Shown in pieces: positions 3,992-26,244 of a stretch of 39,013 nt of DNA. The notes beneath the pieces were generated by a model. The model was not told where the DNA came from. It saw nothing but the letters and a program-made list of their open reading frames with translations, and did not search any database. Source of the stretch: Minisyncoccota bacterium (lineage in GTDB: Bacteria; Patescibacteriota; Minisyncoccia; Phycocordibacterales; UBA9973); contig JAOAUE010000032.1 of NCBI GenBank assembly GCA_030157745.1, positions 1 through 39,013 on the forward strand. Reading direction: 5' to 3'. The position numbers and the translations under genes were made by a program. Within the stretch, counting starts at the first letter, position 1, and each line of letters begins with the position of its first letter.

Positions 3992-4045
3992 TTATAAAAT
4001 CTTTTTTAAATACTCTCCGGTAAAGCTATGTTTATTATTGGCGAC
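3992..4045 (-). pseudogene. relic copy of the uvrA 3' end (last 17 codons plus TAA), abutting the crtB ATG
   Basis: The minus strand reads GTCGCCAATAATAAACATAGCTTTACCGGAGAGTATTTAAAAAAGATTTTATAA, encoding VANNKHSFTGEYLKKIL-stop. This is the same peptide as the real uvrA end at 4116-4169. Confidence 0.8.
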
Positions 4046-4115
4046 CCCGCAGGAAAGTATTGTATCTTATTGCACACAATACTTCCAACGGGGCGAGATG
4101 TGGCTTGATTGTTTT
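4046..4115 (+). other. 70-nt structured insertion element, copy 1 (unknown class)
   Basis: Fold: CCCCG...CGGGG closing helix; GGAA(A)GTATTGT / ACAATACTTCC inner helix with a bulged A; then CGAGATGTGGCT and a T-rich tail. Related copy at 9320-9382 on the other strand. Confidence 0.6.
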
Positions 4116-6830
4116 CTACAATATTTTTTTAAGATACTCTCCGGTAAAGCTATGTTTGTTATTGGCGACTTCTTCTGGGGTACCTTTGGCGATAATTTTT
4201 CCGCCCGCTATTCCTCCTTCGGGACCAAAGTCGATAAGGTGGTCAGCACATTTGATAAGGTCGAGGTTGTGTTCAATCACCACGACAGTGTTGCCTTTGG
4301 CTACAAGGCGATTTAAAACTCCTATCAAGTTCTTTACGTCATCATAGTGAAGCCCAACAGTTGGTTCATCGAGAAGATAAATAGTTTTTTCTAAGTAAGG
4401 ACGATAAAGTTCACTAGCGATTTTTACGCGTTGCGCTTCTCCACCTGATAGTGTTGTGGCGCTTTGTCCGAGCTTCACATATCCTAGCCCTACTTCTGAT
4501 AGAGTTTTGAGTCTGTCATAAACAGCTGGTATATCAGCAAAAAATTCCAAACCTTCTTCAACAGACATTTGCAAAACATCATAAATATTTTTGCGCTTGT
4601 ATTTTACAGTGAGAGTTTCTTTATCAAATCTTTTCCCGCCACAAACATCACAGGTGACATACACAGTTGGCAAAAAGTGCATCTCTACTGCTATCTCTCC
4701 GTTACCTTCACAGGCTTCACATCTTCCACCTTTGACATTGAAAGAAAATCTGTTGACCTTCCATCCACGCAGACGCGCTTCTTCTGTTTGAGCAAATATG
4801 TCTCTGATATGGGTAAATGCTCCTGTATATGTAGCAATATTTGATCTAGGAGTACGACCTATTGGAGACTGATCTATCATGATGGCGCGGGCTAGATATT
4901 CGGTACCAGTAAAAGATGCGCAGTTGTAAACCTTGGCACTACGAAGTTTGCGCTCAAATCTAGCTTGGAGATTTTTGTACAAGATTTCATAAAGAAATGT
5001 ACTCTTACCACTTCCTGAGACTCCAGTGATAGCAACCATTTTTCCAAGTGGTACATCTATATTTTGATTGTGAATATTATGAAGATTTGCTCCGACAATT
5101 TTCAAAACCCCTTTGTCTTGGTCTCGACGCTTCTCTGGAGTTTCTATTTCCTCTTCTTTACGCAAATAAGCTAGAGTTCGAGAACCGCTTTCGTTTTTCT
5201 TGGCGGAGAGAAGTTTGTCCAAATACCCAGAAACAATGACTTGCCCTCCATGGACACCAGCACCAGGGCCAATATCAACAAGATAGTCTGAAGCATAGAT
5301 AGTATCTTCATCATGCTCAACAACCAAAATAGTGTTACCCATATCACGTAGATCTTCCAAAGTCCTTATAAGTCTTTCATTGTCTCTTTGGTGTAGGCCA
5401 ATAGTCGGCTCATCGAGTACATACATGGCCCCTACAAGTCGAGACCCGAGCTGAGAAGCTAGTCTGATACGCTGTGCTTCTCCTCCAGAGAGAGTGTTGG
5501 CGGTACGAGAAAGAGCCAAGTAGTTGAGCCCAACATTAAGAAGAAAGTTCAAACGATCTTCTATTTCTTTGAGAACTGCTTTGGCAACCTCCATATCCTT
5601 GGCCGAGAGTTTGAGAGAGCCAAAGAACTCAAAAGCTTCTTCTACAGAAAGCGAGGTGAGGTCAACGATATTAATTTTCGTCGACTTAAGACTAGTACTT
5701 TTTTTCGTGTCTGGCATAGCGCTAGCTACGAGATCCGAGGACCGAGAAAACCCTGCAGACTTGGCGCTTGTAGACTCCAAAAATACATTCAAAGCTTCTG
5801 GGCGAAGTCTCTTGCCTCCACAAACTTCACAAGCCTCTGTGCCACCAAAGAACTTTGTTCCAATACCATTACACTCAGGACAAGCTCCATATGGCGAGTT
5901 GAAAGAGAAAAGTCTCGGCTCAATCTCTGGAAAAGAATACCCATCATTTGGGCAAGAGAACTTGGAAGACATCAAAAACTCTTGAAGAGTTTGTGTCTCC
6001 ATATCAAAGTCTTCTGATACACCAAAAACTACTTGGACCAATCCATCAGCCTCAAGGAGAGCTCGCTCTGTTGCTTCAAAGAGTCGGAGCTCTGCATCTC
6101 GAGGGCTATCTTTAAATTCGTGAACCGCTAATTCATCTACTAAAACTTCGATAGTATGCTTGTCATTTTTCTTGAGCTCTATACGCTCTCGGAGTTTGTG
6201 AATCTTGCCATCAATACGCACAGTGCTAAAACCTTTACCTATCAGATCATATAGGAGTTGATAGTACTCCCCCTTTCTTCCGCGAACAATCGGCGCATAT
6301 ATTTGAATTCGAGTGTCATTAAATTCCACACCCATTACGGACTTATTTTTAGCTTTAGAAAATTCTTTTATCTTTCCTAAAATAAAAGTATTTATTTCCT
6401 CTGGAGAGAGCTTTTGTATAAGAGTGCCACAAACAGGACAATATGCCTTGCCGACACGCGCATATAGCACGCGCATATAGTCATACATTTCAGTGATTGT
6501 CGCGACCGTAGAGCGAGGATTGTTGGAGCGAGATTTTTGGTCAATGGAAATCGCAGGAGAAAGACCACTGATTTCATCAACATCAGGCTTGGGCATTTGG
6601 TTTAAAAATTGCCGAGCATAACTAGATAGACTCTCCACGTAACGACGCTGTCCTTCCGCGAAGATAGTATCAAAAGCCAAAGAGCTCTTGCCGGAGCCTG
6701 AAAGTCCGGTAATAGCGATCATTTTACCTCGAGGCATCTCAACAGACACATTTTTGAGGTTGTGTGTTCGAGCACCTTTGACTACTATAAGCCCAGCATT
6801 TGATTCATTTTTTGACTCTGCTTTCTTCAT
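4116..6830 (-). CDS. uvrA: excinuclease ABC subunit UvrA
   Basis: Two ABC modules (GLSGSGKSSLAFDT, GVSGSGKSTF, two LSGGEAQR signatures) and CxxC zinc modules. The ATG at 6830 (MKKAESK...) is preferred; the ORF track starts at a GTG at 6890. Confidence 0.95.
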   Translation of the reverse strand: MKKAESKNESNAGLIVVKGARTHNLKNVSVEMPRGKMIAITGLSGSGKSSLAFDTIFAEGQRRYVESLSSYARQFLNQMPKPDVDEISGLSPAISIDQKSRSNNPRSTVATITEMYDYMRVLYARVGKAYCPVCGTLIQKLSPEEINTFILGKIKEFSKAKNKSVMGVEFNDTRIQIYAPIVRGRKGEYYQLLYDLIGKGFSTVRIDGKIHKLRERIELKKNDKHTIEVLVDELAVHEFKDSPRDAELRLFEATERALLEADGLVQVVFGVSEDFDMETQTLQEFLMSSKFSCPNDGYSFPEIEPRLFSFNSPYGACPECNGIGTKFFGGTEACEVCGGKRLRPEALNVFLESTSAKSAGFSRSSDLVASAMPDTKKSTSLKSTKINIVDLTSLSVEEAFEFFGSLKLSAKDMEVAKAVLKEIEDRLNFLLNVGLNYLALSRTANTLSGGEAQRIRLASQLGSRLVGAMYVLDEPTIGLHQRDNERLIRTLEDLRDMGNTILVVEHDEDTIYASDYLVDIGPGAGVHGGQVIVSGYLDKLLSAKKNESGSRTLAYLRKEEEIETPEKRRDQDKGVLKIVGANLHNIHNQNIDVPLGKMVAITGVSGSGKSTFLYEILYKNLQARFERKLRSAKVYNCASFTGTEYLARAIMIDQSPIGRTPRSNIATYTGAFTHIRDIFAQTEEARLRGWKVNRFSFNVKGGRCEACEGNGEIAVEMHFLPTVYVTCDVCGGKRFDKETLTVKYKRKNIYDVLQMSVEEGLEFFADIPAVYDRLKTLSEVGLGYVKLGQSATTLSGGEAQRVKIASELYRPYLEKTIYLLDEPTVGLHYDDVKNLIGVLNRLVAKGNTVVVIEHNLDLIKCADHLIDFGPEGGIAGGKIIAKGTPEEVANNKHSFTGEYLKKIL

Positions 6831-6921
6831 AAATATAAGCGATTGTACCACAAAATTAGAAGCATTCCCTGTATATCTGTAGAGCCCCACCAGTAATCAT
6901 TTATACCTCTACAAAGAGAAC

Positions 6922-6950
6922 TTGACATGAATGTTGTAAATATGTAGTAT
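6922..6950 (+). promoter_or_regulatory. sigma70-like promoter
   Basis: TTGACA (6922-6927), 17-nt spacer, TAGTAT (6945-6950), about 15 nt upstream of the 6965 ATG. Confidence 0.5.
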
Positions 6951-6964
6951 CAATAAAAAAATAC

Positions 6965-7153
6965 ATGATTATTATGAATAAACATCCTTTTTTATCAGAC
7001 TCATGGATTGACGAACACCTCTCCAACTTAGATGGAGAAACTTGTACTAGCGAACATCCTTACTATGGACATAAAAAATGCTTAGCGGATAATTGGAAAG
7101 AAGTACTTTTTACTATAACCCTTGGGATTTCTGTAATTTTGATTTTTACTTAA
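6965..7153 (+). CDS. small hypothetical protein with a C-terminal TM helix (62 aa)
   Basis: ORF preceded by a consensus-like promoter and followed by a hairpin plus T-run. No family recognised. Confidence 0.4.
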   Translation: MIIMNKHPFLSDSWIDEHLSNLDGETCTSEHPYYGHKKCLADNWKEVLFTITLGISVILIFT

Positions 7154-7167
7154 GATAAAGTACTTAA

Positions 7168-7195
7168 AACGGGCTTCTAAGCTCGTTTTTTTTTA
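7168..7195 (+). terminator. rho-independent terminator overlapping the uvrB stop region
   Basis: AACGGGC...GCTCGTT stem with one G-T pair, followed by a run of 9 T. Confidence 0.45.
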
Positions 7196-9319
7196 TTTCT
7201 CTGGATTAATATATGTTTTATTTTTCAGCACCACTATCTCATCTCTCAGTATTGCGGCGGTTTCGAAGTCTAAGACTTTCACTGCTTCTTTCATTTCTGC
7301 TTCTTTGAGTGCAATAAGTTTTTCGATAGGGTTTTTCTTTCCTTTTCCTTTCTTACCACCTGCTTTTTCTACCGCGGCAAAGAGTTCCATATCGAGAGCA
7401 AGCTCGGCGTTGACTGCTTTTGCATGATCACTTTCCATCCCTTCGGTAATATCATTGATAGCTTTTGAGATAGTCTTTGGAGTGATGCCGTGTTTTTTGT
7501 TATAAGCGAGTTGCACATCTCGGCGTCTTTTGGTCTCGCCCATTGCCCGCTCCATAGAGCCTGTTATTTGGTCAGCATAAAGAATAACTCTTCCATTAGC
7601 ATTTCGAGCTGCCCGACCTATGGTTTGGATCAGGGAGACTTCACTTCGCAAAAATCCTTCTTTGTCTGCATCCAAAATACCAATAAGCGAAACCTCTGGC
7701 ATATCAAGACCTTCACGAAGCAGGTTAACTCCAACCAAAACATCGAAAGCTCCTTTTCGGAATTTTGTAATAATCTGAATACGCTCGATAGTTTTAATAT
7801 CGCTGTGCATATATTCTGCTTTGACACCTTTTTCTTTGAGATAAGCAGAGAGATCTTCAGCCATTTTTTTGGTTAGGGTTGTAGCAAGTACTCTGCCACC
7901 TTTTTTGATTTCTGACACAGCTTCGTTGATAAAGTCTTGGACCTGACCAGGGTAGTTTCTAGGTTCTAGGTTCAAGTTTTTAGTTTCTAGAACCTTGTCA
8001 CTAGCAACTAACACCTGCTCCAAAATCGGTCGGACCAAAACTTCTGGGTCTACGAGCCCTGTTGGACGAATGATTTGCTCTACTGTTTGTTCACTTAGCT
8101 CTGCTTCATTTTTCCCTGGTGTTGCGGAGACAAATATAGTTTGGCCGATGCGTTGTTTGAACTCTTCGAACTTAAGAGGTCTGTTGTCTTTGGCGCTAGG
8201 TAGACGGAAACCAAAATCTACGAGAGTTTGCTTTCGAGAAGCGTCCCCTGAATACATAGCTCCGAGTTGAGGAAGTGTGACATGAGACTCATCTATAAAT
8301 AATAAAAATTCAGGATTGCCATCCTTGTCGTGAGGAAAATATGAAAGTAGGGTCTCTGGTGGCTCTCCCGCTTTTTTGCCAGATAGAAGCCTAGAATAGT
8401 TTTCTATACCAGAGCAATACCTCATCTCTTTGATCATGGCCATATCATAAGAAGTACGACGCTTTAGCCTCTCTGCTTCCAGGAGTTTGCCTTCTTTTTC
8501 AAAATAAGCGAGCTGGGATTTGAGTTCATATGCGATAGCTTTGACTGCTTTTTCTTTTTGGTCTTCGGCTGTTATGAAGTGCTTAGCTGGGAAAACAAAA
8601 ACATGATTTTCTTCTTGTAAAATACGAGAGGACACCGGATCTATCTTTAGTATCTCTTCTACTTTATTTCCTGAAAAAGCAATACGATACTGAAGAGTTT
8701 CTGAAACTGGCATTATCTCAATAGTATTACCGAGCGCACGGAACTGAGCTGGTGAGAGATCGGCATTTGTTCTTTCATAGTGGATACCGATGAGCCTTTG
8801 CATAGCTTCTGTCCTAGACAAAGTCATACCTTTTTCTATTTTGAAATTTACTCTCTCATATTCAACAGGAGAACCAAGACCATAAATACAAGACACGGAG
8901 GCTACAATGATCACGTCTTTACGAGTAAGCAAACTCTGAGTGGTTGCATGACGAAGTCTATCTATTTCCTTATTTATTTGTGCATCTTTTTCTATATAAG
9001 TATCTGTTGTTGGTAAATAAGCCTCTGGTTGATAGTAATCATAATAAGAAACAAAGTAGTGAACCGCATTGTTAGGAAAAAAGCTTTTGAACTCACTAGC
9101 AAGCTGGGCAGCGAGAGTTTTGTTGTGAGCAATGATAAGGGTAGGCTTTTGAACACTGGCGATAATGTTGGCCATAGTAAAGGTCTTCCCTGTTCCTGTA
9201 GCACCAAGAAGAGTTTGCATTTGCAAACCTTTTTTAAGGCCAGAAAGAAGACCTTTGATAGCTTCTGGCTGGTCTCCACCCGGAGCGAAATCACTTATTA
9301 AGTCAAATTTATTTTCCAT
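7193..9319 (-). CDS. uvrB: excinuclease ABC subunit UvrB
   Basis: 708 aa. Walker A GATGTGKTFTMA, YYDYYQPEAY beta-hairpin region, DESH box, helicase C motifs, C-terminal UVR domain (LDFETAAILRDEI). Confidence 0.95.
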   Translation of the reverse strand: MENKFDLISDFAPGGDQPEAIKGLLSGLKKGLQMQTLLGATGTGKTFTMANIIASVQKPTLIIAHNKTLAAQLASEFKSFFPNNAVHYFVSYYDYYQPEAYLPTTDTYIEKDAQINKEIDRLRHATTQSLLTRKDVIIVASVSCIYGLGSPVEYERVNFKIEKGMTLSRTEAMQRLIGIHYERTNADLSPAQFRALGNTIEIMPVSETLQYRIAFSGNKVEEILKIDPVSSRILQEENHVFVFPAKHFITAEDQKEKAVKAIAYELKSQLAYFEKEGKLLEAERLKRRTSYDMAMIKEMRYCSGIENYSRLLSGKKAGEPPETLLSYFPHDKDGNPEFLLFIDESHVTLPQLGAMYSGDASRKQTLVDFGFRLPSAKDNRPLKFEEFKQRIGQTIFVSATPGKNEAELSEQTVEQIIRPTGLVDPEVLVRPILEQVLVASDKVLETKNLNLEPRNYPGQVQDFINEAVSEIKKGGRVLATTLTKKMAEDLSAYLKEKGVKAEYMHSDIKTIERIQIITKFRKGAFDVLVGVNLLREGLDMPEVSLIGILDADKEGFLRSEVSLIQTIGRAARNANGRVILYADQITGSMERAMGETKRRRDVQLAYNKKHGITPKTISKAINDITEGMESDHAKAVNAELALDMELFAAVEKAGGKKGKGKKNPIEKLIALKEAEMKEAVKVLDFETAAILRDEIVVLKNKTYINPEK

Positions 9320-9382
9320 AAAAGTTAAAAAATATTAGATAGCCCCATCTCGCCCCGTTGGAAGCGCTAGCTTTCCTTCGGG
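9320..9382 (-). other. 63-nt structured insertion element, copy 2
   Basis: The minus strand reads CCCGAAGGAAAGCTAGCGCTTCCAACGGGGCGAGATGGGGCTATCTAATATTTTTTAACTTTT. It has the same closing helix, bulged A and CGAGATGxGGCT tail as 4046-4115, but a shortened distal stem. Confidence 0.6.
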
Positions 9383-9427
9383 GTCTCCACCCGGAGCGAA
9401 ATCACTGACTAACCCAAACTTATCCAT
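9383..9427 (-). pseudogene. relic copy of the uvrB 5' end (ATG plus 14 codons), now heading a 30-aa chimeric upstream ORF (9335..9427)
   Basis: Encodes MDKFGLVSDFAPGGD, against MENKFDLISDFAPGGD at the functional start. The last 24 nt are identical to 9272-9295. Reading continues into the element and stops at TAA 9335-9337. Confidence 0.75.
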
Positions 9428-17114: not shown

Positions 17115-17224
17115 AATATAGTTCAGTTGGCCCCATTTTTTGGAGCCGATTACGCCACCTTATCTGTTTTGGTGGATATAATGATTAGCAATAAAACAGA
17201 CACTGGTTAGCACATCCAGTACAT

Positions 17225-17300
17225 GCCGCTTTAGCTCAGTTGGTAGAGCAACGCTTTTGTAAAGCGAAGGTCGTCAGTTCAAGTCTGACAAGCGGCTCCA
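17225..17300 (+). tRNA. tRNA-Thr (anticodon TGT) with encoded CCA
   Basis: Manual cloverleaf fold: acceptor GCCGCTT/AAGCGGC; D arm GCTC-AGTTGGT-AGAGC; anticodon arm ACGCT-TTTGTAA-AGCGA with anticodon TGT; variable loop AGGTC; T arm GTCAG-TTCAAGT-CTGAC; discriminator T plus CCA. Confidence 0.9.
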
Positions 17301-18828
17301 TCACTCGCATTTCGTCGGGAATACTAAAATTAGCACGGGCGGCGCGAAGCGCCGACCACGGATTTTCGCCTGATTTTGAAACAGCATTCTCGGAATTCGG
17401 CGCGCTCGCACGCACTGTTTTTTCGCCAAGGAGGAGGTTCGAGCCAAAGACTTTTTTGGCAGCAACCTTTTTATCTAAAAAGTTGCTATCCAATGCGATT
17501 TTTTCCATATCCTGAGCCTCTTTTATCCATTTTGCCATCGGTTCGAGCCACAATTTTTGTTTGCTCTCCGAACGAGAGATTTCTTCCTCCAGCGACTTTT
17601 TCTCGGATAATAATTTTGCTTTTTCCGCTCGATAAATTTCCTTTTCTATATCTTGATCTAAATATCCGTCTAAAAGTCGCTGGAGCTTCACTGTGATGCC
17701 TTGTATCTTTTTCTCGTTTTCGAAAACAAAAATATGAACAGATTGGGCGGATTCCGTTTTGTCTTTTTCAAGTCTTTCATTCAGATAATCCGCCCAATCT
17801 TGTGGCATAGAAACTTTTTGAAGAAGTGATGAAATTTGCGCGTCCATTTTTTCTGCTCGAATACAAGGTTCAGGGCATTTTTGAGTTTTTGATTTCTTGG
17901 TACAGCGATAATATGTATAGAAATGTTGAGTACCATTTTTCTGCGTTTTTACCTTGTATTCGCCAGTTATTTGCATTCCGCACGACGCGCACGAAAGCAG
18001 TCCGCAATATGCTTGTGGATTATTCTTATGCTTACCAGTCGGACGACTTTTCCGCTCCATCACTTCTTGCACCTGGTCAAAAAGTTTCTTTGACACGATT
18101 GGCTCGTGCTTGCCTTCGTGTACTTCGAGATTAAACCTGAAATGTCCGTAATAAAATGGATTTGAGAGGATAAAGGTCGTACGCGAGATGTGGATTCTCT
18201 TTCCTTGTTTGGTTAGCAAGCGGTTTGCTTCAAAATACTCGCCGATACTTTGAAGTGTAGAATCTCCTTTTGCGTAAAGTTCAAATGCTTGGCGAATAAT
18301 CGGAGCAGTCTTTTTGTCAGCAACAACAGTTTTCGTCCTCGAATCGTTTATATACCCCACCGGAGCCAGACTTGGATATTCGCCACGCCTGACTTTCTGC
18401 CGCAAACCGCGCTTCGTATTTTCGGAAAGAGAATCCACATAGTATTTGCTTTGTCCAAATGCCATATTGAGCATAAACTTGCCTTGTGAACTGCTGTCAC
18501 ACCAAAATGTCGGGAATTTTAAACTCACAAGTTTTTCTGTGTCGAGGAGATAGATAATACGCCCACCATCAACAGAATTACGAGCGAGACGGTCAGGATG
18601 CCACGCGAGAATATTTCCGCCGAGTTTTTCAATTTCATTTAGCATCTCGTTAAATATCGGACGACCAGGAATCTTGGCAGATTGTTTTTCCACATACTCG
18701 GCGGAGATTTCAATATTCTCTCGCGTGGCATAGTCTCGCAATTCTTGAAGTTGTGCTTCAATCGAAAGAACCTGCTTATCCTCGACATCAGTTGACTTGC
18801 GAGCATACAAAAAGAATTTTTCACTCAT
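17236..18828 (-). CDS. large serine recombinase (resolvase/invertase N-terminal domain, recombinase domain, zinc ribbon, coiled coil)
   Basis: YARKSTDVEDKQVLSIEAQ catalytic-Ser region; WHPDRLARN; Cys-rich CASCGMQ...YYRCTKK...CPEPC; long coiled coil. The last ~42 codons lie in inverted repeat IR1, and the final 20 codons read antisense through the tRNA, so the exact functional C-terminus is uncertain. Confidence 0.85.
   Translation of the reverse strand: MSEKFFLYARKSTDVEDKQVLSIEAQLQELRDYATRENIEISAEYVEKQSAKIPGRPIFNEMLNEIEKLGGNILAWHPDRLARNSVDGGRIIYLLDTEKLVSLKFPTFWCDSSSQGKFMLNMAFGQSKYYVDSLSENTKRGLRQKVRRGEYPSLAPVGYINDSRTKTVVADKKTAPIIRQAFELYAKGDSTLQSIGEYFEANRLLTKQGKRIHISRTTFILSNPFYYGHFRFNLEVHEGKHEPIVSKKLFDQVQEVMERKSRPTGKHKNNPQAYCGLLSCASCGMQITGEYKVKTQKNGTQHFYTYYRCTKKSKTQKCPEPCIRAEKMDAQISSLLQKVSMPQDWADYLNERLEKDKTESAQSVHIFVFENEKKIQGITVKLQRLLDGYLDQDIEKEIYRAEKAKLLSEKKSLEEEISRSESKQKLWLEPMAKWIKEAQDMEKIALDSNFLDKKVAAKKVFGSNLLLGEKTVRASAPNSENAVSKSGENPWSALRAARANFSIPDEMRVMEPLVRLELTTFALQKRCSTN
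17296..17421 (+). repeat. inverted repeat IR1, left copy (126 bp)
   Basis: Exact reverse complement of 18907-19032, checked base by base. Imperfect extension to 17442 / 18886. Confidence 0.9.
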
Positions 18829-18906
18829 TTATTGATTCTAACAAAAATTCTTTTTGTATGTAAATAGCAAAAATTGCATTTGATTTCGAACCTCCTCCTC
18901 CAAAAC

Positions 18907-19032
18907 AAAACAGTGCGTGCGAGCGCGCCGAATTCCGAGAATGCTGTTTCAAAATCAGGCGAAAATCCGTGGTCGGCGCTTCGCGCCGCCCGTGCTAATT
19001 TTAGTATTCCCGACGAAATGCGAGTGATGGAG
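18907..19032 (-). repeat. inverted repeat IR1, right copy (126 bp); a duplicated recombinase 3' end
   Basis: Exact reverse complement of 17296-17421. Read on the plus strand it encodes ...SNLLLQNKTVRASAPNSENAVSKSGENPWSALRAARANFSIPDEMRVME, the recombinase C-terminal peptide. Confidence 0.9.
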
Positions 19033-19215
19033 TGGTTGTACGATTCGGCTCGAACCTATTTCATCAAAAATTCATAAATGTATTAAATGCGGACTCGGTT
19101 TTGCGAAAGCTCTTTTTTGGGGACACGGATTTCGCAAAACCTCGGCTGATTCTTTTTTGGCATTCGCCTCTGGTTCTGGGTTCTCCCGCAGGAGGGGTTT
19201 GGGGAGGAATGCGGG
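19030..19215 (+). repeat. inverted repeat IR2, left copy (186 bp)
   Basis: Exact reverse complement of 26046-26231, checked base by base. Overlaps IR1-right by the 3-nt GAG core. Ends 2 nt before the RT1 stop codon. Confidence 0.9.
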
Positions 19216-19217
19216 GG

Positions 19218-20306
19218 TTATTTTGGGTCTTTGAGAAAATGTTTAAACTTATTCCGTAAGCGATAACTATTGGCATGAGAAAAATGTCCGAGATATGAGC
19301 TTATGCCAGCTTGTAATTTCTCTCGCGTTTTCTCGTGGCAAGGAAGCCTCAATTTTTCTGCCCTCTGTTTACACCTTCCAACAGTTGCCCGACGAACGAG
19401 GACATGAGTGGGCTTGATAATATACCCGACGAAGTCAATACCGTGGCGCACTCGTTGCAAGATAATTTTCCGCGGATGGATGTTGAGCTTGCGTTCTCTC
19501 TTCAGCCACACTTCTATCTGTACCACCGCACTCTTTAATTTTTCTTTATCCGCATCAAGAAATACGAAATCGTCCACATACCTCGCGTAGCGAGGAAATC
19601 CGAGCGTCTGGCTGATATATTTATCAAGCCCGTCGAGATAGCAGTTAGCGAAGAATTGCGAGGTCAAGTTCCCTATCGGCAAGCCCGTACCGCCGGAGTA
19701 AAAGAGTGATTTATGTTTCGGGATAAGTGCTTTGAGTGCAGTATCTCCCCTGTAAATATAATCAAGTGTCGGGTCACAAAAGATAACCTGCTCGCAAATC
19801 CAAAGCATATCCCCTTTCCACCACTCGGGTTTTTCTTGCTGATTGATAAGCCCTGCGATGACATCAAAAAGAATTGGTCGGTCAATCGAACGGAAGAAGC
19901 TCTCGACATCAAGCTTCAGATACCAATCATTCGGGCGCTCTCGGGCATAGGCACGCACTTGCTTGAATCCTGAGTGCGTCCCCTTGCCTTCCCTATTGGC
20001 ATACGAAGTTGGCACGAACCAACTTTCGCACAAAGGAGCAAGCTCGTTGTAAATAATATGGTGTATAACCCGATCACGAAAGTCGGCAGCAAAAATCTCT
20101 CTCGGCTTCGGGTCAGTCACGACAAAAGAAATATGTCGACTGATGCAGTATGTCCGTTCAGTGAGTTCTTTCCGCAGACTGATAAGCTCGCGCTCCCGCA
20201 AGAGTTCAAACCGAAGTCGATTGACTGTTTTCTTTTTACGCTTGATACAGCTCTTGTACGCCAGCCAGAGATTCTCTAAGGTAAAAATAGTTTCTACTGT
20301 ATTCAT
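19218..20306 (-). CDS. DGR reverse transcriptase 1
   Basis: RT motifs, including the DGR-typical LPIGNLTSQFFANCYL and the YxDD box YARYVDDFVFL. Lies immediately downstream of TR1. Start taken at ATG 20306 (MNTVETIFTLENLWLAYK); alternative start 20327. The track ORF extends to 20606 only by reading through TR1. Confidence 0.9.
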   Translation of the reverse strand: MNTVETIFTLENLWLAYKSCIKRKKKTVNRLRFELLRERELISLRKELTERTYCISRHISFVVTDPKPREIFAADFRDRVIHHIIYNELAPLCESWFVPTSYANREGKGTHSGFKQVRAYARERPNDWYLKLDVESFFRSIDRPILFDVIAGLINQQEKPEWWKGDMLWICEQVIFCDPTLDYIYRGDTALKALIPKHKSLFYSGGTGLPIGNLTSQFFANCYLDGLDKYISQTLGFPRYARYVDDFVFLDADKEKLKSAVVQIEVWLKRERKLNIHPRKIILQRVRHGIDFVGYIIKPTHVLVRRATVGRCKQRAEKLRLPCHEKTREKLQAGISSYLGHFSHANSYRLRNKFKHFLKDPK

Positions 20307-20354
20307 TTGGTCTGTTATTGTGCGCATAAAGCAGAGGGTTCGATAGAGGAGTTC

Positions 20355-20491
20355 TCGAACACACCGGACATAGTTGCCATTGGTCTTATCATTCGCATCA
20401 GAGTTGCCATTGTTGAAGTTCACGTTCCAGGCGTTGTTCTCATTGCCCGGATTCTGATAGGTAGAGGACGACCAGTAGTTGTCCGACTGTG
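20355..20491 (-). repeat. DGR-1 template repeat (TR1, 137 bp)
   Basis: Aligns without gaps to 21137-21273 with 25 mismatches. 24 of them are at TR adenines (sense strand). Asn (AAY) codon-rich in frame. Confidence 0.9.
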
Positions 20492-20605
20492 AAATATGAT
20501 ATGTGCGTGACTGTCCGTGTCGGACGTACAGCGCAAATTCGTTTCGTTTATCCTCAGAACTATTAAAAATAATTCTGAGAGCACACACTGAACTCCTCGT
20601 CCTCA

Positions 20606-21007
20606 CTAAAACAATGTTTTTATAGTTGTCTTATTCTGGGTGGGCGCAGTTTTTTTCGGACTGCACGAAGTTCTCCAACCCTCTGCTTGACGCGCGCAAT
20701 CCACCACTTGCTCGACCAGATACAAGTATTGCCGCGGCGAAGCGAACTGCTTCAGCTCCTCGGCTACGCGGAGCATAATCGTAATCTCCTCAATCTTCCA
20801 AACCAACTCACTCAAAACAGCACTCCTGTGTTCAACCGGAGTGCTATTGGCTTTTACGATCAGCCGTACTGCTTCCATCGCGCTTGCAAGGAGCGATGCG
20901 CCGAGCGTGTACTTGTATTGCTTGTCTATTTTCGGCACACGAATGTAGAACTCTTTCAGGAGCCTGAACGTTGCGCTATAGATAGGGAGGTGTTGGTATT
21001 GAGCCAT
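20606..21007 (-). CDS. avd: DGR accessory variability determinant (Avd-like four-helix-bundle protein)
   Basis: 133 aa helical, basic protein in the canonical position between the target gene and TR/RT. Sequence resembles the four-helix-bundle (23S rRNA IVS protein) family. Confidence 0.75.
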   Translation of the reverse strand: MAQYQHLPIYSATFRLLKEFYIRVPKIDKQYKYTLGASLLASAMEAVRLIVKANSTPVEHRSAVLSELVWKIEEITIMLRVAEELKQFASPRQYLYLVEQVVDCARQAEGWRTSCSPKKTAPTQNKTTIKTLF

Positions 21008-21025
21008 AGAAAAATATCACCCCCC

Positions 21026-21047
21026 CCCCTCGCGAAAACGCGAGGGG
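21026..21047 (-). promoter_or_regulatory. GC-rich hairpin (9-bp stem, 4-nt loop) downstream of VR1, embedded in a G10 tract
   Basis: CCCCTCGCG-AAAA-CGCGAGGGG on the plus strand. About 86 nt 3' of the target stop codon and 19 nt 5' of the avd ATG. Confidence 0.5.
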
Positions 21048-21133
21048 AAGAATAACCAAAGGAATAAAAAGAATCGAGAAAAGAACCCAAAGAAAAACCG
21101 CAAAAATTATCAAATAAACAAATCATCAAAGAA

Positions 21134-21976
21134 TTATCGAACACACCGGACATAGCCGCCCTCGGCCTTACCAACCGCATCAGAGTAGCCATCGCCGAAG
21201 CTCACGAGCCAGGCGCCGCCCTCACCGCCCGGACCCTGATAGGTAGAGGACGACCAGTAGCTGCCCGACTGTGTGTTTGGGAAGAATGTCGTATCGATGG
21301 CAGGGTTGACTGTGGCAAGGCTCACAATGGAAAGAAGTTCGATTCTATTTGGCAAGCGCCAGTCACTGTGTCCCGCTGTGGTATCGGCTTCACAGGTCGA
21401 GAGCGCAGTCGTCCAGTCAAGTCCAGTAGCAGAATCAGCCGAACAGTCAGTATCTGATTGTCCTTCGGAACATTTTTTCCACATAAGTCCTGTCGCGTTA
21501 TCCGAAATCGTGCTGTCAGTATTATCTACAAATCGCGCGCCGCTTGTGGGTAAACCTTTTTCGTAGTCGCCATCTTGTCCGGTACCAGTACACGATATTG
21601 GAGTACCACTTGCATCCCAACAATCAGTCTGACCAGTTTTTGGTAGTCCAGCTTGTCCAGCCGATGCAGTACCTGCAACGCCCATATATGTCGTCCCTGT
21701 GAGTATTTTAGTCGCATCAAGCGTCGGAATGCTTTCATAAATCTGCTTGAGGGTGTGAAATGTCGCAGACACAGAGCCAGGCGTAGTAAACGAAGCCGAA
21801 CCTTCGACTTGGCTTGTCGTGTTGTCGATGAGTCTGTTGTAAATGCCATCGAGTGTGTACATCGTGCTTGCCGGAACTCCAGGCGGAGTAAGCGAACCTG
21901 CAAAACTTGTGCGGACAAATGCACCGATTATAAATGCGACGAGAACAAAGGAACCGATTTTTAGAAACTTTTTCAT
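21134..21976 (-). CDS. DGR-1 variable target protein, secreted DUF1566 (Lcl C-terminal / C-type-lectin-fold) protein
   Basis: Signal peptide. GLMWKK...HSDWRLPNRIELLSIV...YWSSSTY...YVRCVR is the DUF1566 signature. The C-terminal 45 codons are VR1. Confidence 0.9.
   Translation of the reverse strand: MKKFLKIGSFVLVAFIIGAFVRTSFAGSLTPPGVPASTMYTLDGIYNRLIDNTTSQVEGSASFTTPGSVSATFHTLKQIYESIPTLDATKILTGTTYMGVAGTASAGQAGLPKTGQTDCWDASGTPISCTGTGQDGDYEKGLPTSGARFVDNTDSTISDNATGLMWKKCSEGQSDTDCSADSATGLDWTTALSTCEADTTAGHSDWRLPNRIELLSIVSLATVNPAIDTTFFPNTQSGSYWSSSTYQGPGGEGGAWLVSFGDGYSDAVGKAEGGYVRCVR
21137..21273 (-). repeat. DGR-1 variable repeat (VR1)
   Basis: 137-bp match to TR1 with adenine-specific substitutions, at the extreme 3' end of the target ORF. 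Confidence 0.9.
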
Positions 21977-21977
21977 A

Positions 21978-22856
21978 TTATTTACTATTTAATTTATTTC
22001 TTGTAATAGGACCGACGATGCCATCTGCTGTGAGAGTATTATTTTTTTGAAACGTTACCACCGCTTGCTTGCTCTTTGGACCAAAAATGCCGTCAGTCAC
22101 TAAAGGTGGCGACAATGTCTGAACTTTTTTGTTGAGACATATTTGCAAGTCTTTGACGTTGGTGTTATTCATCCGAGGAATTGTCAGCTTTAAAGTTTGA
22201 GTGAAGTTGAGTGTACACACTGTAGTAGGTAAAGTTGTCGGAAGTGTTGTAATCACAATAGTTCCCTCGCTTGCAGTCAAATACGATCCTTTGCAATCTG
22301 GATCAGCTAAATCAATCTTCCCATCGTGGTCATCGTCAATGCCATTGTTGCACTGTGTGATTATTCGCCCTCCCCCACTACTGTGACTAGTACTTGGTGC
22401 GGGCGTGACTGGTGGTCGCCACGCAGTCGTCACTTTGTAGTCCACTGTCCCGCAACTTGAAGTGTTGGCGCAGTTAAAAGAGATCCAACCGATATTTGGG
22501 CTATATGCGTAGCCAGAAAAAATTCCAGTGCTTGTGTTGATGGTCGCCTGAGAGAAATCCACATAGCCAGTATTCTCGCTCCACGCGTAACCTGAGAGTG
22601 TGCCGGAGGAATTTGAAACTTTGTAATCAGTGGTACCGCATGAACTAGTGTTATCACAATTGAGCGACAACCAGCCGATGTTCGGACTGTACGCATAGCC
22701 GGAAAGTACGCTACTTGAAACAGTCACTTGAGAAAAATCTATCCAGCCAGTATTCTCGCTCCAGGCATAACCGGAGGTGCTATCTGCAAACGCTTTTGTC
22801 GCAGAGAAAAACATTATTGATAATATGAATAAACTAAAAACGGATTTTAATCTCAT
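21978..22856 (-). CDS. secreted repeat protein with a C-terminal peptidoglycan-binding domain
   Basis: Signal peptide. Two ~70-aa repeats carrying GYAWSENTGW(I/V)DFSQ and GYAYSPNIGW(L/I)S(L/F)NC. C-terminal PG_binding_1-like DGIFGPKSKQAVVTFQKNNTLTADGIVGPITRNKL. Its stop is 1 nt from the DGR-1 target start. Confidence 0.8.
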   Translation of the reverse strand: MRLKSVFSLFILSIMFFSATKAFADSTSGYAWSENTGWIDFSQVTVSSSVLSGYAYSPNIGWLSLNCDNTSSCGTTDYKVSNSSGTLSGYAWSENTGYVDFSQATINTSTGIFSGYAYSPNIGWISFNCANTSSCGTVDYKVTTAWRPPVTPAPSTSHSSGGGRIITQCNNGIDDDHDGKIDLADPDCKGSYLTASEGTIVITTLPTTLPTTVCTLNFTQTLKLTIPRMNNTNVKDLQICLNKKVQTLSPPLVTDGIFGPKSKQAVVTFQKNNTLTADGIVGPITRNKLNSK

Positions 22857-22877
22857 TCTATTATTATACCCCCCCCC
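22857..22877 (-). promoter_or_regulatory. G9 tract abutting a TATAAT box 6 nt upstream of the ATG (candidate leaderless promoter of the DGR-1 operon)
   Basis: The minus strand reads GGGGGGGGG-TATAAT-AATAGA-ATG. Confidence 0.4.
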
Positions 22878-22904
22878 GAGCGTTTTGGCAAGGGTGTTGC
22901 CCCC

Positions 22905-23930
22905 CTATTCCTTGTTAAAATCGGCCGTTTGAGAACGCTTTACATACTCAACAACTTGCCCCGCGAGCCTCTCTGCGTTTCCGTGGCTCAATAGCCCGAG
23001 ATACGACTGAACTGTTTCTTCCTTGCCCTCTTTCTCTTTGATACGCTTCCACATCCTGCGTTTCGTTGCCGTTCTTACTATGCGGTGATCGGGAAAATGT
23101 ACCCAGCCGAGGAAATCAACACCGGAGGCAAGCGTCTTTATAAAAACTTTATTGGGATGAAGTGATAGCTTGAGTCGTTCTTTTAGGAAAGAACCTACTT
23201 GGGGTAGTATCGTTTCCAACCATTTCTTGTCTTCAGACAGAAAAACAAAATCGTCAGCATAGCGTATATAGTATTGTGCTTTCAACTTGTGCTTCACGAA
23301 TTGGTCAAACTCATTCATATATATGTTTACGAATATCTGCGAGGTAAGATTGCCAAGTGGAAGCCCAACCTCTTTTCGTGTCGAATGAAAACTCCCGATG
23401 ATACCTGATAACAAAGAGAGTATGTCTTCGTCAGAAATATATTTCTTGATAATCCCGATAAGTACACTATGGTCAATGGATGCAAAAAACTTTCGTATAT
23501 CGCATTTCAAAATCCATACTGTTCTTGTGTTATTTTTTGATACTGTGTCAGAAAACATTTTAAATCGTTGTAACGCTTTATGTGTTCCCTTTCGCTCTCG
23601 GCAAGAATAGGAGTCAGCTATAAATGTCTTATCGAAGAATGGATAGAGTTCCCGATAGAGTGCATGGTGAAGCAGTCTATCCCGCACCCTTGCTTTATGT
23701 ATACTTCGTGGCTTTGGGTCAGATATATTGAATGCGTAATAGTCGGAGTGCTTATATGTTTTTTGTGAAAGTTCATTGTGAAGCTCTATGATATTCGCCA
23801 TTAAATTTCGCTCAAAATCCAAGACATCTTTTCGGAGTTTTTTACCTTTCAAAAAATCTTTCCACGCAAGGAGGAGATTTTCAAGAGAAATGATATATTG
23901 ATATGTATGAATAAACTGAATCCGAGCCAT
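22905..23930 (-). CDS. DGR reverse transcriptase 2
   Basis: LPLGNLTSQIFVNIYM and YIRYADDFVFL motifs; N-terminal ...SLENLLLAWKDFLKGKK. Paired with TR2/VR2. ATG at 23930 preferred; the track start at 23960 translates the G-tract. Confidence 0.9.
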   Translation of the reverse strand: MARIQFIHTYQYIISLENLLLAWKDFLKGKKLRKDVLDFERNLMANIIELHNELSQKTYKHSDYYAFNISDPKPRSIHKARVRDRLLHHALYRELYPFFDKTFIADSYSCRERKGTHKALQRFKMFSDTVSKNNTRTVWILKCDIRKFFASIDHSVLIGIIKKYISDEDILSLLSGIIGSFHSTRKEVGLPLGNLTSQIFVNIYMNEFDQFVKHKLKAQYYIRYADDFVFLSEDKKWLETILPQVGSFLKERLKLSLHPNKVFIKTLASGVDFLGWVHFPDHRIVRTATKRRMWKRIKEKEGKEETVQSYLGLLSHGNAERLAGQVVEYVKRSQTADFNKE

Positions 23931-23992
23931 AATAACTATAAAGATACCCCCCCCCGACAACGCTTTTACCAGTACTTCAGAAACTCAAAACT

Positions 23993-24313
23993 GTGTATAT
24001 CTTATGGTATCAGTATTATCAAAACTTGCCTAAAGCCCATCGCTACTCGCTTGGAGTACGGATTGATGCCTTGTTCGTAGAAATAATGGAAGCTATCTCA
24101 CTTGCAGGATTTCTTCCCCGTAGCGAGAAACAAACCTATGTACGGCTCTCTATACGGAAAGTAGATACTCTTAAAATCTTACTGATGATTGTATGGGAAA
24201 CGAAATCTATAGATAATAGGAAATACATCGCCCTCTCTGTACCACTTGAAGAAATCGGGAAAATGCTCGGCGGTTGGAACGGACAGCTTACAAAACAAAA
24301 CTCCCCCAACTAA
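23993..24313 (+). CDS. avd: Avd-like four-helix-bundle protein, divergent from RT2
   Basis: 106 aa helical protein (…AHRYSLGVRIDALFVEIMEAI…KVDTLKILLMIVWETKSIDNRKYIALSVPLEEIGKMLGGW). GTG start. Lies between RT2 and TR2 but on the opposite strand. Confidence 0.65.
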   Translation: MYILWYQYYQNLPKAHRYSLGVRIDALFVEIMEAISLAGFLPRSEKQTYVRLSIRKVDTLKILLMIVWETKSIDNRKYIALSVPLEEIGKMLGGWNGQLTKQNSPN

Positions 24314-24337
24314 ATAGTTGAGGGAGAAAGAAGAGAG

Positions 24338-24440
24338 TTGCGAACACCAGCGAACCACCAATTGTCATTCCAGTCGTTATCATTACGATTGACATTCACG
24401 TTACGCTCGTCGTCATTCCAGTGGTTGAACGTGGCAATTT
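24338..24440 (-). repeat. DGR-2 template repeat (TR2, ~103 bp)
   Basis: Gap-free alignment to 24803-24905 with 20 mismatches, all at TR adenines (sense strand). In-frame translation is Asn-rich (NVNVNRNDNDWNDNWWFAGVR). Confidence 0.9.
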
Positions 24441-24676
24441 GTACAAAGTATCATCTGTGCCACTGCCCTTTGAATACTCTCGGGGCTGTATCGTATTTGC
24501 GATCATAATCGCTCGATACTCTGTACCAAGTATCTTCATTTTTTGTTTGAAGTTTCTACATACACCACTCTATCCTAAGCCGTAGCCCTAGATATTCTCA
24601 ATGTATGGATACTGGGATCGGTAGCGGACAATCGTGATCGTCCACATATTCACCTACTGCCATGATTATTTTAGCA

Positions 24677-24709
24677 TAAAAAATACCCCTGCGTTTTATG
24701 CGAGGGGTA
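24677..24709 (-). terminator. rho-independent terminator after the DGR-2 target gene
   Basis: The minus strand reads ACCCCTCGCATAAAACGCAGGGGT followed by ATTTTTTAT. Confidence 0.55.
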
Positions 24710-24798
24710 GGAAGTTTGTAAAACCTCCAAAACTTTTTGCGAACGAAGGGCAAAGTTCAAAGTGTCAAAATAGGACAGAGTGAACAAAATCCTAAGTA

Positions 24799-25410
24799 CT
24801 ACTTGCGAACACCAGCGAACCACCAACCGTCATCCCAGCCGTCATCACCACGACTGACAAACACGCTACGCCCGCCGCCATTCCAGCGGTCGAACGCGGC
24901 AAAGCACCATTTACCATTTGCATCCTTCCAGTGTGTACCATTAGGATATTTGTCAGCAAAGGCAGGATCAGCTTCGTTTACAGCAGCCTGTGAATACGGG
25001 TCGGCGGGTTTTAATCCACGGAGGTCATATTCTTTTTCCAGGTCGTTGTCATTAACAAAGCGACCAAGGTTAAAGAAGAAAACTTCTGTTTCTTCGCCTT
25101 CTCCTTTTGGCATTTTGGCAACAACACCGCTATCAGTGTATTGCTTCCTGCCTGTGGCATCCAACATTTCTTTTGGTGATCGGTTGCGGTTTACTTTTAC
25201 CTTGCGGATAATCAGATTACTGATCGCATCCACACGTTTAAGGATTGAAGCATACATCTCATCCAATAATGTTTCATCTCCAAGCACTTGCTGGAAAAGA
25301 TTACTTGGAAGCTCATTTTTGTGCTTCAGTAATCGTGCAGTCAAGTTTTGGTTTAATTTACCGATTTGACCTTCGGTAACAGGTTCTGTTGATGGGGTCA
25401 TAGTGTCCAT
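24799..25410 (-). CDS. DGR-2 variable target protein (no signal peptide; C-terminal CLec/FGE-like variable region)
   Basis: 203 aa. The C-terminus ...WCFAAFDRWNGGGRSVFVSRGDDGWDDGWWFAGVRK is VR2. No N-terminal hydrophobic segment. Confidence 0.85.
   Translation of the reverse strand: MDTMTPSTEPVTEGQIGKLNQNLTARLLKHKNELPSNLFQQVLGDETLLDEMYASILKRVDAISNLIIRKVKVNRNRSPKEMLDATGRKQYTDSGVVAKMPKGEGEETEVFFFNLGRFVNDNDLEKEYDLRGLKPADPYSQAAVNEADPAFADKYPNGTHWKDANGKWCFAAFDRWNGGGRSVFVSRGDDGWDDGWWFAGVRK
24803..24905 (-). repeat. DGR-2 variable repeat (VR2)
   Basis: Matches TR2 with adenine-specific substitutions, at the 3' end of the ORF. Confidence 0.9.
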
Positions 25411-25599
25411 GGCGTCATCGTTTTAATTGTTTGTGCCATCGGACTATACCTTCGTGGTATAGCCATAGCCAAAAAGTGCTTAGAGATAAGAACCTTTTGG
25501 CTATGGCTATGTTGCAAGTAGATGTAAAAGAGCTGTTCCGAGCTGTATAATAGCATAATAAACCATAAAAGTCAATCTTTGAGTTTAGAAATGGAGCGA

Positions 25600-26045
25600 T
25601 GACCTATTCACGGGGAGTGTCTTCCGTGCGCGCGAATGGGTGGGATAGTCCGCCTGTATTCAGGCGGACTGGGTCAAGCGCAGTTGCATCTGAGCCTCGG
25701 GCATTTCCGCTATGAGCGTCCAATGGCTAAAGGATGAGCGCCGTGGGTAATCGAAGTGGAATATGTAAATAGCGAAGCAAAAGATACACGCTAATATGAA
25801 AAGCGTGGAGTGGGTGTGGCGAGGGCGCACGACGAGGAACGAGGAGTATATCGCCCGACCCAGGGAGAGGAGACTTCCTCTCCCTAAGAAGCGCGGGTGA
25901 TAACCCGCACATAGGCACCTAGGCGCGAGTAGCCATAGCGGAAATGCCCGAGGCGGATGCCGAGGGTGCATCCCCTTTAGACTTGGACAATACATAGCAG
26001 AGAAATGACTGAGACAATGATTTAGTCCTGTTTCTTTCTTAGAAG
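25600..26045 (+). ncRNA. candidate large structured RNA or DNA element (unclassified)
   Basis: ORF-poor and GC-rich. A perfect 21-bp long-range helix pairs 25693-25713 with 25933-25953. Nested hairpins: AGTCCGCC/GGCGGACT at 25648-25671, AGGGAGAGGA/TCCTCTCCCT at 25862-25885, GCGGGT/ACCCGC. A TATAAT box lies at 25546-25551. Strand and ends are uncertain. Confidence 0.4.
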
Positions 26046-26231
26046 CCCGCATTCCTCCCCAAACCCCTCCTGCGGGAGAACCCAGAACCAGAGGCGAATG
26101 CCAAAAAAGAATCAGCCGAGGTTTTGCGAAATCCGTGTCCCCAAAAAAGAGCTTTCGCAAAACCGAGTCCGCATTTAATACATTTATGAATTTTTGATGA
26201 AATAGGTTCGAGCCGAATCGTACAACCACTC
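26046..26231 (-). repeat. inverted repeat IR2, right copy (186 bp), right end of the island
   Basis: Exact reverse complement of 19030-19215. Confidence 0.9.
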
Positions 26232-26244
26232 AAGGATATACAAA

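Follow-up and report, generated by a model that had tools for sequence, protein, structure and literature searches.

Integrative elements and genomic islands whose attP site carries a surrogate gene end, and which an integrase inserts into tRNA, tmRNA or protein genes, lie inside conserved genes between flanking direct repeats, keep the gene functional and leave a relic of the resident end behind. Gene termini are also duplicated by free-standing homing-endonuclease gene insertions, such as those in atp6 or cox genes of fungal mitochondria; these fuse a foreign in-frame terminus to the gene body and are accompanied by a resident relic and a co-conversion tract. Small imperfect hairpins without an open reading frame (ORF), with one arm and an adjacent single-stranded tail conserved, are seen among elements that HUH enzymes handle as single strands: IS200/IS605 elements with their ORF-less derivatives, the palindrome-associated transposable elements (PATEs), and repetitive extragenic palindromes with their associated tyrosine transposases (REP/RAYT). 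These insert immediately 3' of a short motif and leave no classical target-site duplication. Here we describe a hairpin-bearing cassette that has features of all three, present twice in a 39,013-nucleotide (nt) stretch of DNA from a Minisyncoccota bacterium (contig JAOAUE010000032.1; hereafter the window), at the 5' end of the excision-repair gene uvrB and at the 3' end of uvrA. The cassette sits in the matching host gene: its left side abuts the resident gene end, which is truncated after ...GA and persists as a relic, and its right side runs seamlessly into the gene body, so that the gene is intact. By sequence comparison, the right arm is another lineage's copy of a conserved gene's end together with its outer flank, supplying a promoter-like region and start, a stop, or the 5' part of a tRNA. 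We interpret these insertions as ORF-less mobile cassettes of 109–124 nt that replace gene ends and consist of a structured module and a right arm from another lineage, a reading to which we assign a probability of roughly 0.55.

In its effect the cassette resembles an integrative element, or a homing-endonuclease insertion of the free-standing kind that restores the gene it enters, but for want of an enzyme gene it lacks what defines either. The insert is flanked by direct repeats and the element-borne end restores the target gene, as in integrative elements, whereas no integrase lies within the insert. Also unlike these elements, the cassette measures 109–124 nt without any ORF, has a hairpin of variable length at the junction, replaces the 5' ends of a tRNA gene and a protein gene, and uses one module at three unrelated targets. 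A homing-endonuclease insertion was rejected because there is no ORF, a hairpin being found instead, and because the window junction GGTGGAGAC/CAGCC (a slash marks the junction position throughout) recreates the native site; the host, a bacterium of the candidate phyla radiation (CPR), also differs. In contrast to IS200/IS605, PATEs and REP/RAYT, the cassette has one hairpin rather than left and right ends, is very low in copy number, and carries 66–71 nt of gene-specific cargo with which it lands in register in a homologous gene. As regards PATE-type features, there is a single hairpin only, and all five copies known to us follow ...GA, with GGNGA common to the uvrB and uvrA sites, across just three independent sites; no TnpA (Y1 HUH) or RAYT gene was found near the copies, and no TnpA was seen in the window, with 8–39 kb covered per genome. 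No known family appears to fit, and the few literature searches completed returned nothing relevant to an element of this kind.

Resident and foreign gene ends at uvrB and uvrA

Coordinates refer to the whole window, and uvrB sequences are read on its minus strand. Downward from 9427, this strand runs from a relic of the uvrB start through the hairpin CCCGAAGGAAAGCTAGCGCTTCCAACGGGG, a tail, a spacer and a second start into the gene body (CAGCCAGAAG...), with the relic ATGGATAAGTTTGGGTTAGTCAGTGATTTCGCTCCGGGTGGAGAC followed by CCCGAAGGAAAGCTAGCGCTTCCAACGGGGCGAGATGGGGCT, ATCTAATATTTTTTAACTTTT and then ATGGAAAAT..., which begins at 9319 (Table 1). The relic is truncated after ...GGAGA, and its final C is also the first paired C of the hairpin. 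The hairpin folds into a closing helix (CCCCG with CGGGG), a 2 × 2 AA loop, a second helix with a bulged A, a GC stem and a TAGC loop. Within the spacer are the stop of a chimeric upstream ORF (TAA, 9337–9335) and a -10-like TATTTT. The original prediction for this locus had placed the relic at 9383–9427, cut off by the element 45 nt into uvrB, with the reading from the relic start entering the element and stopping after 30 codons and the gene restarting at 9319, all of which was confirmed by minus-strand reading and translation. Its length of 63 nt for the element was wrong: the inserted DNA is 111 nt (9272–9382) and comprises hairpin, tail, spacer and the new 48-nt start, so that the mobile unit includes the second 5' end. 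As had also been predicted, the relic and the replacement start are identical over the 24 nt next to the junction and diverge beyond, with 9 nt differences and a one-codon indel in the outer part. At least eight independent sequencing runs yielded contigs of this species, and in these both window insertions are fixed, with identical hairpins; they are therefore not assembly artefacts.

Relatives were used to compare the two gene ends with native ones. The uvrB site is empty and uninterrupted in five relatives (L031, L034, L036, L042 and L043); in L031 the same upstream region leads into ATGGACAAG...GGTGGGGAC/CAGCCAGAAG, where the gene continues CAGCC. Relatives of the window's UvrB are named Pacebacteria, Nomurabacteria or Minisyncoccia, and the closest (95–97% identity) start MDKFELVSDF, which is the relic type and unlike the working copy. 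Since these nearest relatives share the relic N-terminus and an uninterrupted site, the relic is the resident 5' end. The working uvrB copy is foreign. The relics look fresh. That of the window differs from the intact L031 start at 4 of 45 nt, that of L041 from L042 at one synonymous nt, and that of L037, which is its clade's native N-terminus, has six nt differences, every one synonymous, from the native L043 start. Counted by codon, synonymous differences between relic and native ends make up 5/5 at uvrA, 5/5 in L037, 1/1 in L041 and 3/4 at the window uvrB.

The replacement start of the window is foreign in its distal 24 nt and equals the relic in its proximal 24 nt. By contrast, the new copy of L037 (MENKFNLVSQFTPSGD) differs from its relic along its entire length (16/45 nt), and the left joint was therefore not made by ordinary homologous recombination. 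By the original account, the proposal would have been refuted had an alignment of many relatives shown a simple tandem duplication unrelated to the hairpin; in the relatives examined, the foreign copy instead travels with the hairpin in three uvrB lineages. Tandem duplication is ruled out by the L037 differences, by the synonymous-only differences at uvrA, and by the spacer and MENKF start common to the three lineages. A long target-site duplication followed by decay was likewise rejected, as the copy in L003 (described below) has 19 identical tRNA nt but an unrelated 48 nt upstream.

At uvrA (copy 1), the module spans 4045–4169 and the insertion amounts to 124 nt. The replacement 3' end has 54 nt, including the stop TAG, and its inner 33 nt match the relic. 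Both uvrA ends encode VANNKHSFTGEYLKKIL, and all six codon differences between relic and new end are synonymous; each end therefore evolved as a working coding sequence, in different lineages. The corresponding site of L034 is empty (...GAAGAAGTC/GCAAAC...TATTTAAAAAAGATTTTATAAATG), of the window relic type and with a TAAATG stop/start overlap. That the uvrB element is a second copy of the same hairpin, as originally proposed, is borne out by covariance-model scores and by the 19-mer CTTCCAACGGGGCGAGATG common to both window copies (two occurrences versus 0.01 expected). The orientations given earlier also hold, the element being sense in uvrB and antisense in uvrA with equal polarity to relic and new copy at both sites, whereas the distal stem of copy 1, described as 11 bp, has 7–8 bp in our folds. 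A promoter-like TTGGAA-18-TACAAT lies in the copy 1 hairpin (4059–4088, minus strand), aimed at the uvrA relic and a phytoene-synthase gene, and the stop/start overlap of the latter gene with uvrA was lost upon insertion of the cassette.

With respect to uvrB expression, the upstream ORF of both L037 and L041 ends at a TAA that overlaps the new start (ATGGAAAATAA), an arrangement that would fit translational coupling, while in the window this ORF ends 15 nt before the ATG. Native uvrB starts 6–7 nt after a TATACT box, which suggests that native uvrB mRNAs are leaderless; in the spacer, TATTTT is found 7–9 nt before the new ATG, like native uvrB promoters. The gene, whose expression was originally inferred to depend on the upstream ORF and the element, could be served by either a cassette-borne promoter or termination–reinitiation. 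A simple promoter scan of the spacer gave no full -35/-10 site, such a scan being uninformative here, and the chimeric upstream ORF, used as a protein query after padding to 44 aa, had no candidate match in an index that seems to be without ORFs this small.

A module shared by five copies

In total, five copies were found, in three target types (uvrB, uvrA and tRNA-Arg) and two CPR classes. A 19-mer scan of 185,579 species genomes gave one real match, in a Saccharibacteria metagenome-assembled genome (L003); the other three matches were attributed to chance and lie in high-GC genomes. In L003 the module interrupts a tRNA-Arg gene at its D-loop region. A duplicate of the initial 19 nt of this tRNA lies to the left of the module, with a 48-nt unrelated upstream stretch and the intact tRNA (1890–1962) to its right. 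Among the top 120 UvrB clusters, the three that start MENKF (P0032, P0073 and that of the window) have the cassette without exception, at one and the same codon, P0032 in L037/L038 and P0073 in L041, and the start ATGGAAAATAARTTT of the window's replacement end recurs in L037 and L041. A covariance model built from four copies recovers the L041 copy, which was not used in building it, at 54 bits (E = 7e-15); it scores the copies at 54–81 bits, and ~290 kb of related DNA held no other convincing match. The claim that both excision-repair genes are hit holds for this species; elsewhere it does not, as L037 has a uvrB copy only and the third target is a tRNA gene.

The exact 18/19-mer core had no real match in JGI metagenome contigs, where 25 of 25 matches were due to chance and lacked the 5' arm, and scans of IMG/VR viral contigs for the core and a BLAST search of phages and plasmids with the hairpin gave nothing real or meaningful. 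A CRISPR repeat or a DNA-uptake sequence was dismissed, the core being far too rare. Syntenic relatives without an insertion have no copy of the module in the DNA fetched, compared with two in the window. One further site in the window, at 36840–36882 (minus strand) inside a 1251-aa surface-protein ORF, carries ACCGCAGGAAAAGTAGTTCTCTCAGGAAACAATACTTTCAACGGT, which resembles the copy 1 hairpin including its private distal stem. Its architecture is the same and the covariance model gives it 20.5 bits (E ~6e-4), but both the tail and a duplication of the flank are missing; the site may be a chance match, a decayed copy or the source of the copy 1 distal stem.

In all five copies the resident gene end stops at ...GA, the element begins with CCCC and the first base of the continuing gene body is C or T. 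The hairpins are 31, 31, 46, 49 and 46 nt long (window uvrB 31, uvrA 49) and follow a common plan: a closing helix of 4–6 bp is separated by an internal loop from a second helix, beyond which the distal stem-loop varies. A short, deleted form is common to the window uvrB and L037 copies; L041 has the long form, and its distal part TTCGCCGAATGCGCTC is homologous to TTCGCCGAGTGCGCCC of L003. The tail CGAGAYGKGK is present in 5/5 copies, and the 3' arm and tail together (GCTTCYAACGGGGCGAGAYGKG) show 0–3 changes per 23 nt across classes, while the adjoining spacers differ by about a third. Of the pair cells in the covariance model, 92.7% are paired, as against 35–53% with partners slid, and 2 of 11 pairs change on both sides, a level of covariation equalled in 26 of 500 shuffles. 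Compensatory pairing, put forward earlier as the signature of a selected structure, is therefore a weak argument, the distal stems being merely different or deleted. The hairpin is conserved, but given the few covarying pairs and the conservation of 3' arm and tail, the stronger signal in these alignments is the primary sequence of that arm and tail. Only the hairpin is common to the copies, and a conserved fold of the entire unit was accordingly rejected. The right arm, counted from where the tail ends to the far edge of the insertion, measures 66–71 nt in 5/5 copies despite its very different make-up (Table 1); this constant length looks like the sign of a discrete unit and resembles a molecular ruler. 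Whole cassettes measure 109–124 nt and contain no ORF, and no transposase or integrase adjoins any copy.

Table 1. Coordinates of the two window cassettes, of the right arms of all copies and of other window features
Feature	DNA	Position	Strand	Details
Functional uvrB ORF	Window	7193–9319	-	708 aa; UvrB by Pfam domains and homologues
Relic of resident uvrB 5' end	Window	9383–9427	-	15 codons, ATGGATAAGTTTGGGTTAGTCAGTGATTTCGCTCCGGGTGGAGAC, translation MDKFGLVSDFAPGGD; contiguous with native upstream region
uvrB hairpin	Window	9353–9383	-	31 nt, CCCCGAAGGAAAGCTAGCGCTTCCAACGGGG; folds; covariance-model match 9334–9388, 71 bits
uvrB tail	Window	9343–9352	-	10 nt, CGAGATGGGG; conserved
uvrB spacer	Window	9320–9342	-	23 nt, CTATCTAATATTTTTTAACTTTT; homologous across three uvrB cassettes
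Replacement uvrB 5' end	Window	9272–9319	-	16 codons, ATGGAAAATAAATTTGACTTAATAAGTGATTTCGCTCCGGGTGGAGAC, translation MENKFDLISDFAPGGD; carried by cassette
Chimeric upstream ORF	Window	9335–9427	-	MDKFGLVSDFAPGGDPEGKLALPTGRDGAI; 30 codons plus stop, relic into hairpin
Copy 1 relic of resident uvrA 3' end	Window	3992–4045	-	VANNKHSFTGEYLKKIL plus stop; TAA still overlaps next gene's ATG
Copy 1 hairpin and tail	Window	4045–4103	+	Hairpin 4045–4093, 49 nt; tail CGAGATGTGG 4094–4103; covariance model 80.6 bits; folds
Copy 1 right arm (uvrA)	Window	4104–4169	+	66 nt: 12-nt spacer (non-gene) and reverse complement of replacement uvrA 3' end (54 nt including stop); joins uvrA body
uvrB right arm	Window	9272–9342		71 nt; uvrB arms: 21–23 nt spacer (non-gene) and 48 nt coding
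uvrB right arm	L037	9980–10048		69 nt
uvrB right arm	L041	1597–1665		69 nt
tRNA-Arg right arm	L003	1842–1909		68 nt: 48 nt upstream (non-gene) and 20 nt of tRNA
Island tRNA-Thr	Window	17225–17300
Island large serine recombinase	Window	17236–18828		CcrB/XisF-like
Island diversity-generating retroelement: reverse transcriptase	Window	19218–20606
Island diversity-generating retroelement: bAvd	Window	20606–21007
Island diversity-generating retroelement: Lcl_C target	Window	21134–21976
Template repeat of the retroelement	Window	20349–20491		Differs from variable repeat at template adenines
Variable repeat of the retroelement	Window	21131–21273
Island second reverse transcriptase	Window	22905–23960

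Two nearly identical strains differ in the presence of the cassette. P0088 (L042) is 100% identical to P0073 (L041) past residue 20 but has the native start. At the DNA level, 2 kb of uvrB is free of mismatches between L041 and L042, whereas the 342 nt adjoining the cassette on the gene-body side has 25, the new copy 10, and the 106 nt on the relic side only 2. The cassette therefore lies at the left edge of a recombination tract that ended by homology inside the gene body. Between TGT and uvrB, L041 also has an extra 249-aa ORF without a Pfam match (407–1156) that is absent from L042, and a small ORF adjoining it is only ~70% identical between the two. Breaks in two further assemblies, namely a 100-N scaffold gap exactly at the uvrB insertion point of L032 (GCA_964595255.1; 4438–4537) and the start of contig L033 (sample JGI 3300045332) ~150 nt inside uvrB, fit the coexistence of empty and occupied alleles in those samples. 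A composite 5.3-kb foreign segment between the two inverted hairpins of the window was considered and rejected, because identity to relatives is 86–87% both inside and outside it and L037 has one copy only.

Proposed movement and rival explanations

Any explanation has to account for what is established here, that is, the anatomy, the empty sites, the foreign working copy, three targets in two CPR classes, and polymorphism between near-identical strains with a flanking tract. We propose a discrete unit, probably single-stranded, as the moving form of the cassette. The right arm would pair with the homologous gene end of a new host, thereby setting the register and the insertion point, and at GA/Y the hairpin-bearing 5' end of the cassette would be linked to the 3' end of the resident strand that has been displaced. 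This joining could be performed by a trans-acting enzyme that reads the 3' arm of the hairpin and the tail, for which an HUH-type single-strand nuclease/ligase and a reverse transcriptase are candidates. HUH relaxases and transposases read a sequence-specific arm together with a ~10-nt tail that follows it, and target-primed reverse transcription would yield the same product. An established cassette may also be spread or lost through ordinary homologous recombination of its flanks. Exchange between relic and new copy by gene conversion would explain the 24 identical nt in the window, and we infer that both these and the 33 identical inner nt at uvrA arose in this way, by later conversion between tandem copies. 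More tentatively, and with considerable doubt, the cassette may represent a new class of non-autonomous homing element, in which the cargo of a fixed-length single-stranded unit is both guide and rescue copy and a CPR enzyme does the joining.

Several observations weigh against a mobile cassette that replaces gene ends. The joining enzyme was not identified, and no excised or circular intermediate was seen. The core is very rare, with its single real match among 185,579 genomes, and neither a multi-copy reservoir nor an autonomous relative was found. The tract that separates L041 from L042 could be a plain homologous import of an already occupied allele. Cassette phylogeny (short hairpin in the window and L037, long in L041) parallels host phylogeny, so that old vertical inheritance with repeated precise loss could also be behind the distribution. 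The junction between new copy and gene body in the window recreates the native target, which argues against a nuclease that cuts empty alleles only. Finally, the GA/Y and 66–71-nt rules rest on n = 3, because the five copies represent only three independent target types.

A surrogate gene end beside the crossover is a hallmark of integrative elements, and the junctions could accordingly be att-site scars, formed when a tyrosine or serine integrase recombined an attP (replacement end, GA(C) and hairpin) with an attB in the gene; the units would then be minicircle-sized elements or remnants of larger islands after internal deletion. This would be in keeping with junctions precise to 1–3 nt in all copies, the L037 crossover lying within the last 3 nt, with the 13-6-12 layout of the short forms (CCCCGAAGGAAAG CTAGCG CTTCCAACGGGG), which resembles a recombinase core site, and with the large serine recombinase encoded in the window. 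We nevertheless consider it unlikely, as no integrase lies in or beside any copy, the inter-arm spacing of 6–24 nt is incompatible with a double-stranded core site, and the three unrelated targets share GA/Y only, so that one integrase could not read them all; moreover, no long version of the insertion was seen at any site, and the window recombinase belongs to a separate 9-kb island beside tRNA-Thr. It also seems improbable that the insertions are passive by-products of DNA uptake, in which a donor hairpin outside the gene halts the trimming of strands and the incoming DNA is resolved by homology in the gene body and by an illegitimate join at GA(C), with no dedicated enzyme. Many CPR bacteria do carry DNA-uptake machinery, the replacement ends are foreign, the left joint has 2–3 nt of microhomology, and homologous recombination resolved the gene-body side, at a distance that varies and is 342 nt in L041. 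Yet the 23-nt core is conserved between two CPR classes while its neighbours decay, which calls for sequence-specific recognition; no lineage with intergenic donor copies was found, and three independent events that end exactly at the hairpin foot with a 66–71-nt arm are not expected of illegitimate joins.

Retro-homing, whereby a hairpin-ended RNA is copied by a reverse transcriptase primed from a nicked resident ...GA-3'OH and the cDNA is resolved by homology in the gene body, would explain why the relic is retained and meets CCCC so precisely, why the right side is in register and why the conversion tract varies, and two reverse transcriptases are encoded in the window. Both of these look to be of the diversity-generating retroelement (DGR) type, however, one having its own bAvd and its own pair of template and variable repeats; the template would have to be antisense to uvrB and to the tRNA gene, adenine-specific changes are lacking, and the available DNA around the L003 and L041 copies shows no reverse transcriptase. 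We therefore regard this route as highly unlikely. Least credible to us is that the module acts mainly in cis as a regulatory RNA or DNA element (through coupling to the upstream ORF, as terminator or insulator, or as a new promoter), with incidental tandem duplications. The upstream-ORF stop that overlaps the new start in L037 and L041 and the promoter-like motif of copy 1 aimed at the next gene would suit such a role, but the element is antisense at uvrA, one target is a non-coding tRNA gene, the new copy is foreign rather than a tandem duplicate, no Rfam family matches and no terminator-like T run follows the hairpin. Rfam searches around both copies (gathering threshold, and E up to 10) found no family, the best local matches (E ≥ 0.2) being far below threshold and only tRNA-Thr reaching it.

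Other known elements were compared and set aside. Miniature inverted-repeat transposable elements (MITEs) and Rickettsia palindromic elements are likewise short, palindromic, non-autonomous insertions tolerated in coding regions. The latter are translated in frame, and MITEs have fixed short target duplications and many copies, whereas the cassette cuts the gene and its replacement restarts or re-ends it; a MITE was rejected in view of the two copies in the 39-kb window, the lone genome match and a duplicated stretch that is 19–54 nt long and foreign. Integron attC sites share the closing helix, the unpaired central loop, the second helix with an extrahelical base and the variable terminal stem-loop. 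In the cassette, by contrast, the junction lies at the outer 5' foot of the hairpin, the AA of ...CCAACGGGG is unpaired, paired RYYYAAC/GTTRRRY boxes are absent, and there is no integron integrase or cassette array. A DGR origin was also discarded: differences between relic and new copies are mixed and synonymous, and the window's true DGR lies elsewhere and does have the adenine pattern, its template and variable repeats showing no similarity to the hairpin.

Wider implications and gene neighbourhood

If mobile as proposed, ~110 nt of gene-less DNA can occupy the highly conserved uvrB, uvrA and tRNA-Arg genes at no cost, because the cassette supplies its own replacement gene end. To our knowledge, the principle of bringing one's own replacement end is known only from kilobase-sized integrative elements and endonuclease genes. 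The constant 66–71-nt arm and the conserved hairpin arm and tail point to an enzymatic step that has not been described, and such an enzyme could be of interest for homology-programmed insertion. Were the homing-element reading true, the cassette would be a natural counterpart of engineered 'insert-and-rescue' gene drives, with its choice of target programmed by DNA homology. On the practical side, the cassette alters the annotated N-terminus of UvrB (MENKF...), creates spurious small ORFs and breaks metagenome assemblies, and it can serve as a marker for recent recombination between CPR strains.

The 9-kb island of the window (17200–26300; Table 1) is absent from the syntenic L031 and also encodes a peptidoglycan-binding protein. 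The recombinase gene contains a direct repeat (17436/17540) that seems to be a coincidence, and a tail-like match at 18184 was put down to chance. Between uvrB and uvrA, a DoxX gene is present in L032, L033, L034 and L036 and missing in the window, where a 343-nt gap (6850–7193) contains only a 62-aa ORF (6965–7153, plus strand) without a Pfam match. A relative's UvrB of 1228 aa (P0115) contains an intein with a LAGLIDADG endonuclease domain, so that uvrB is, in this group, a target of selfish elements of two kinds.

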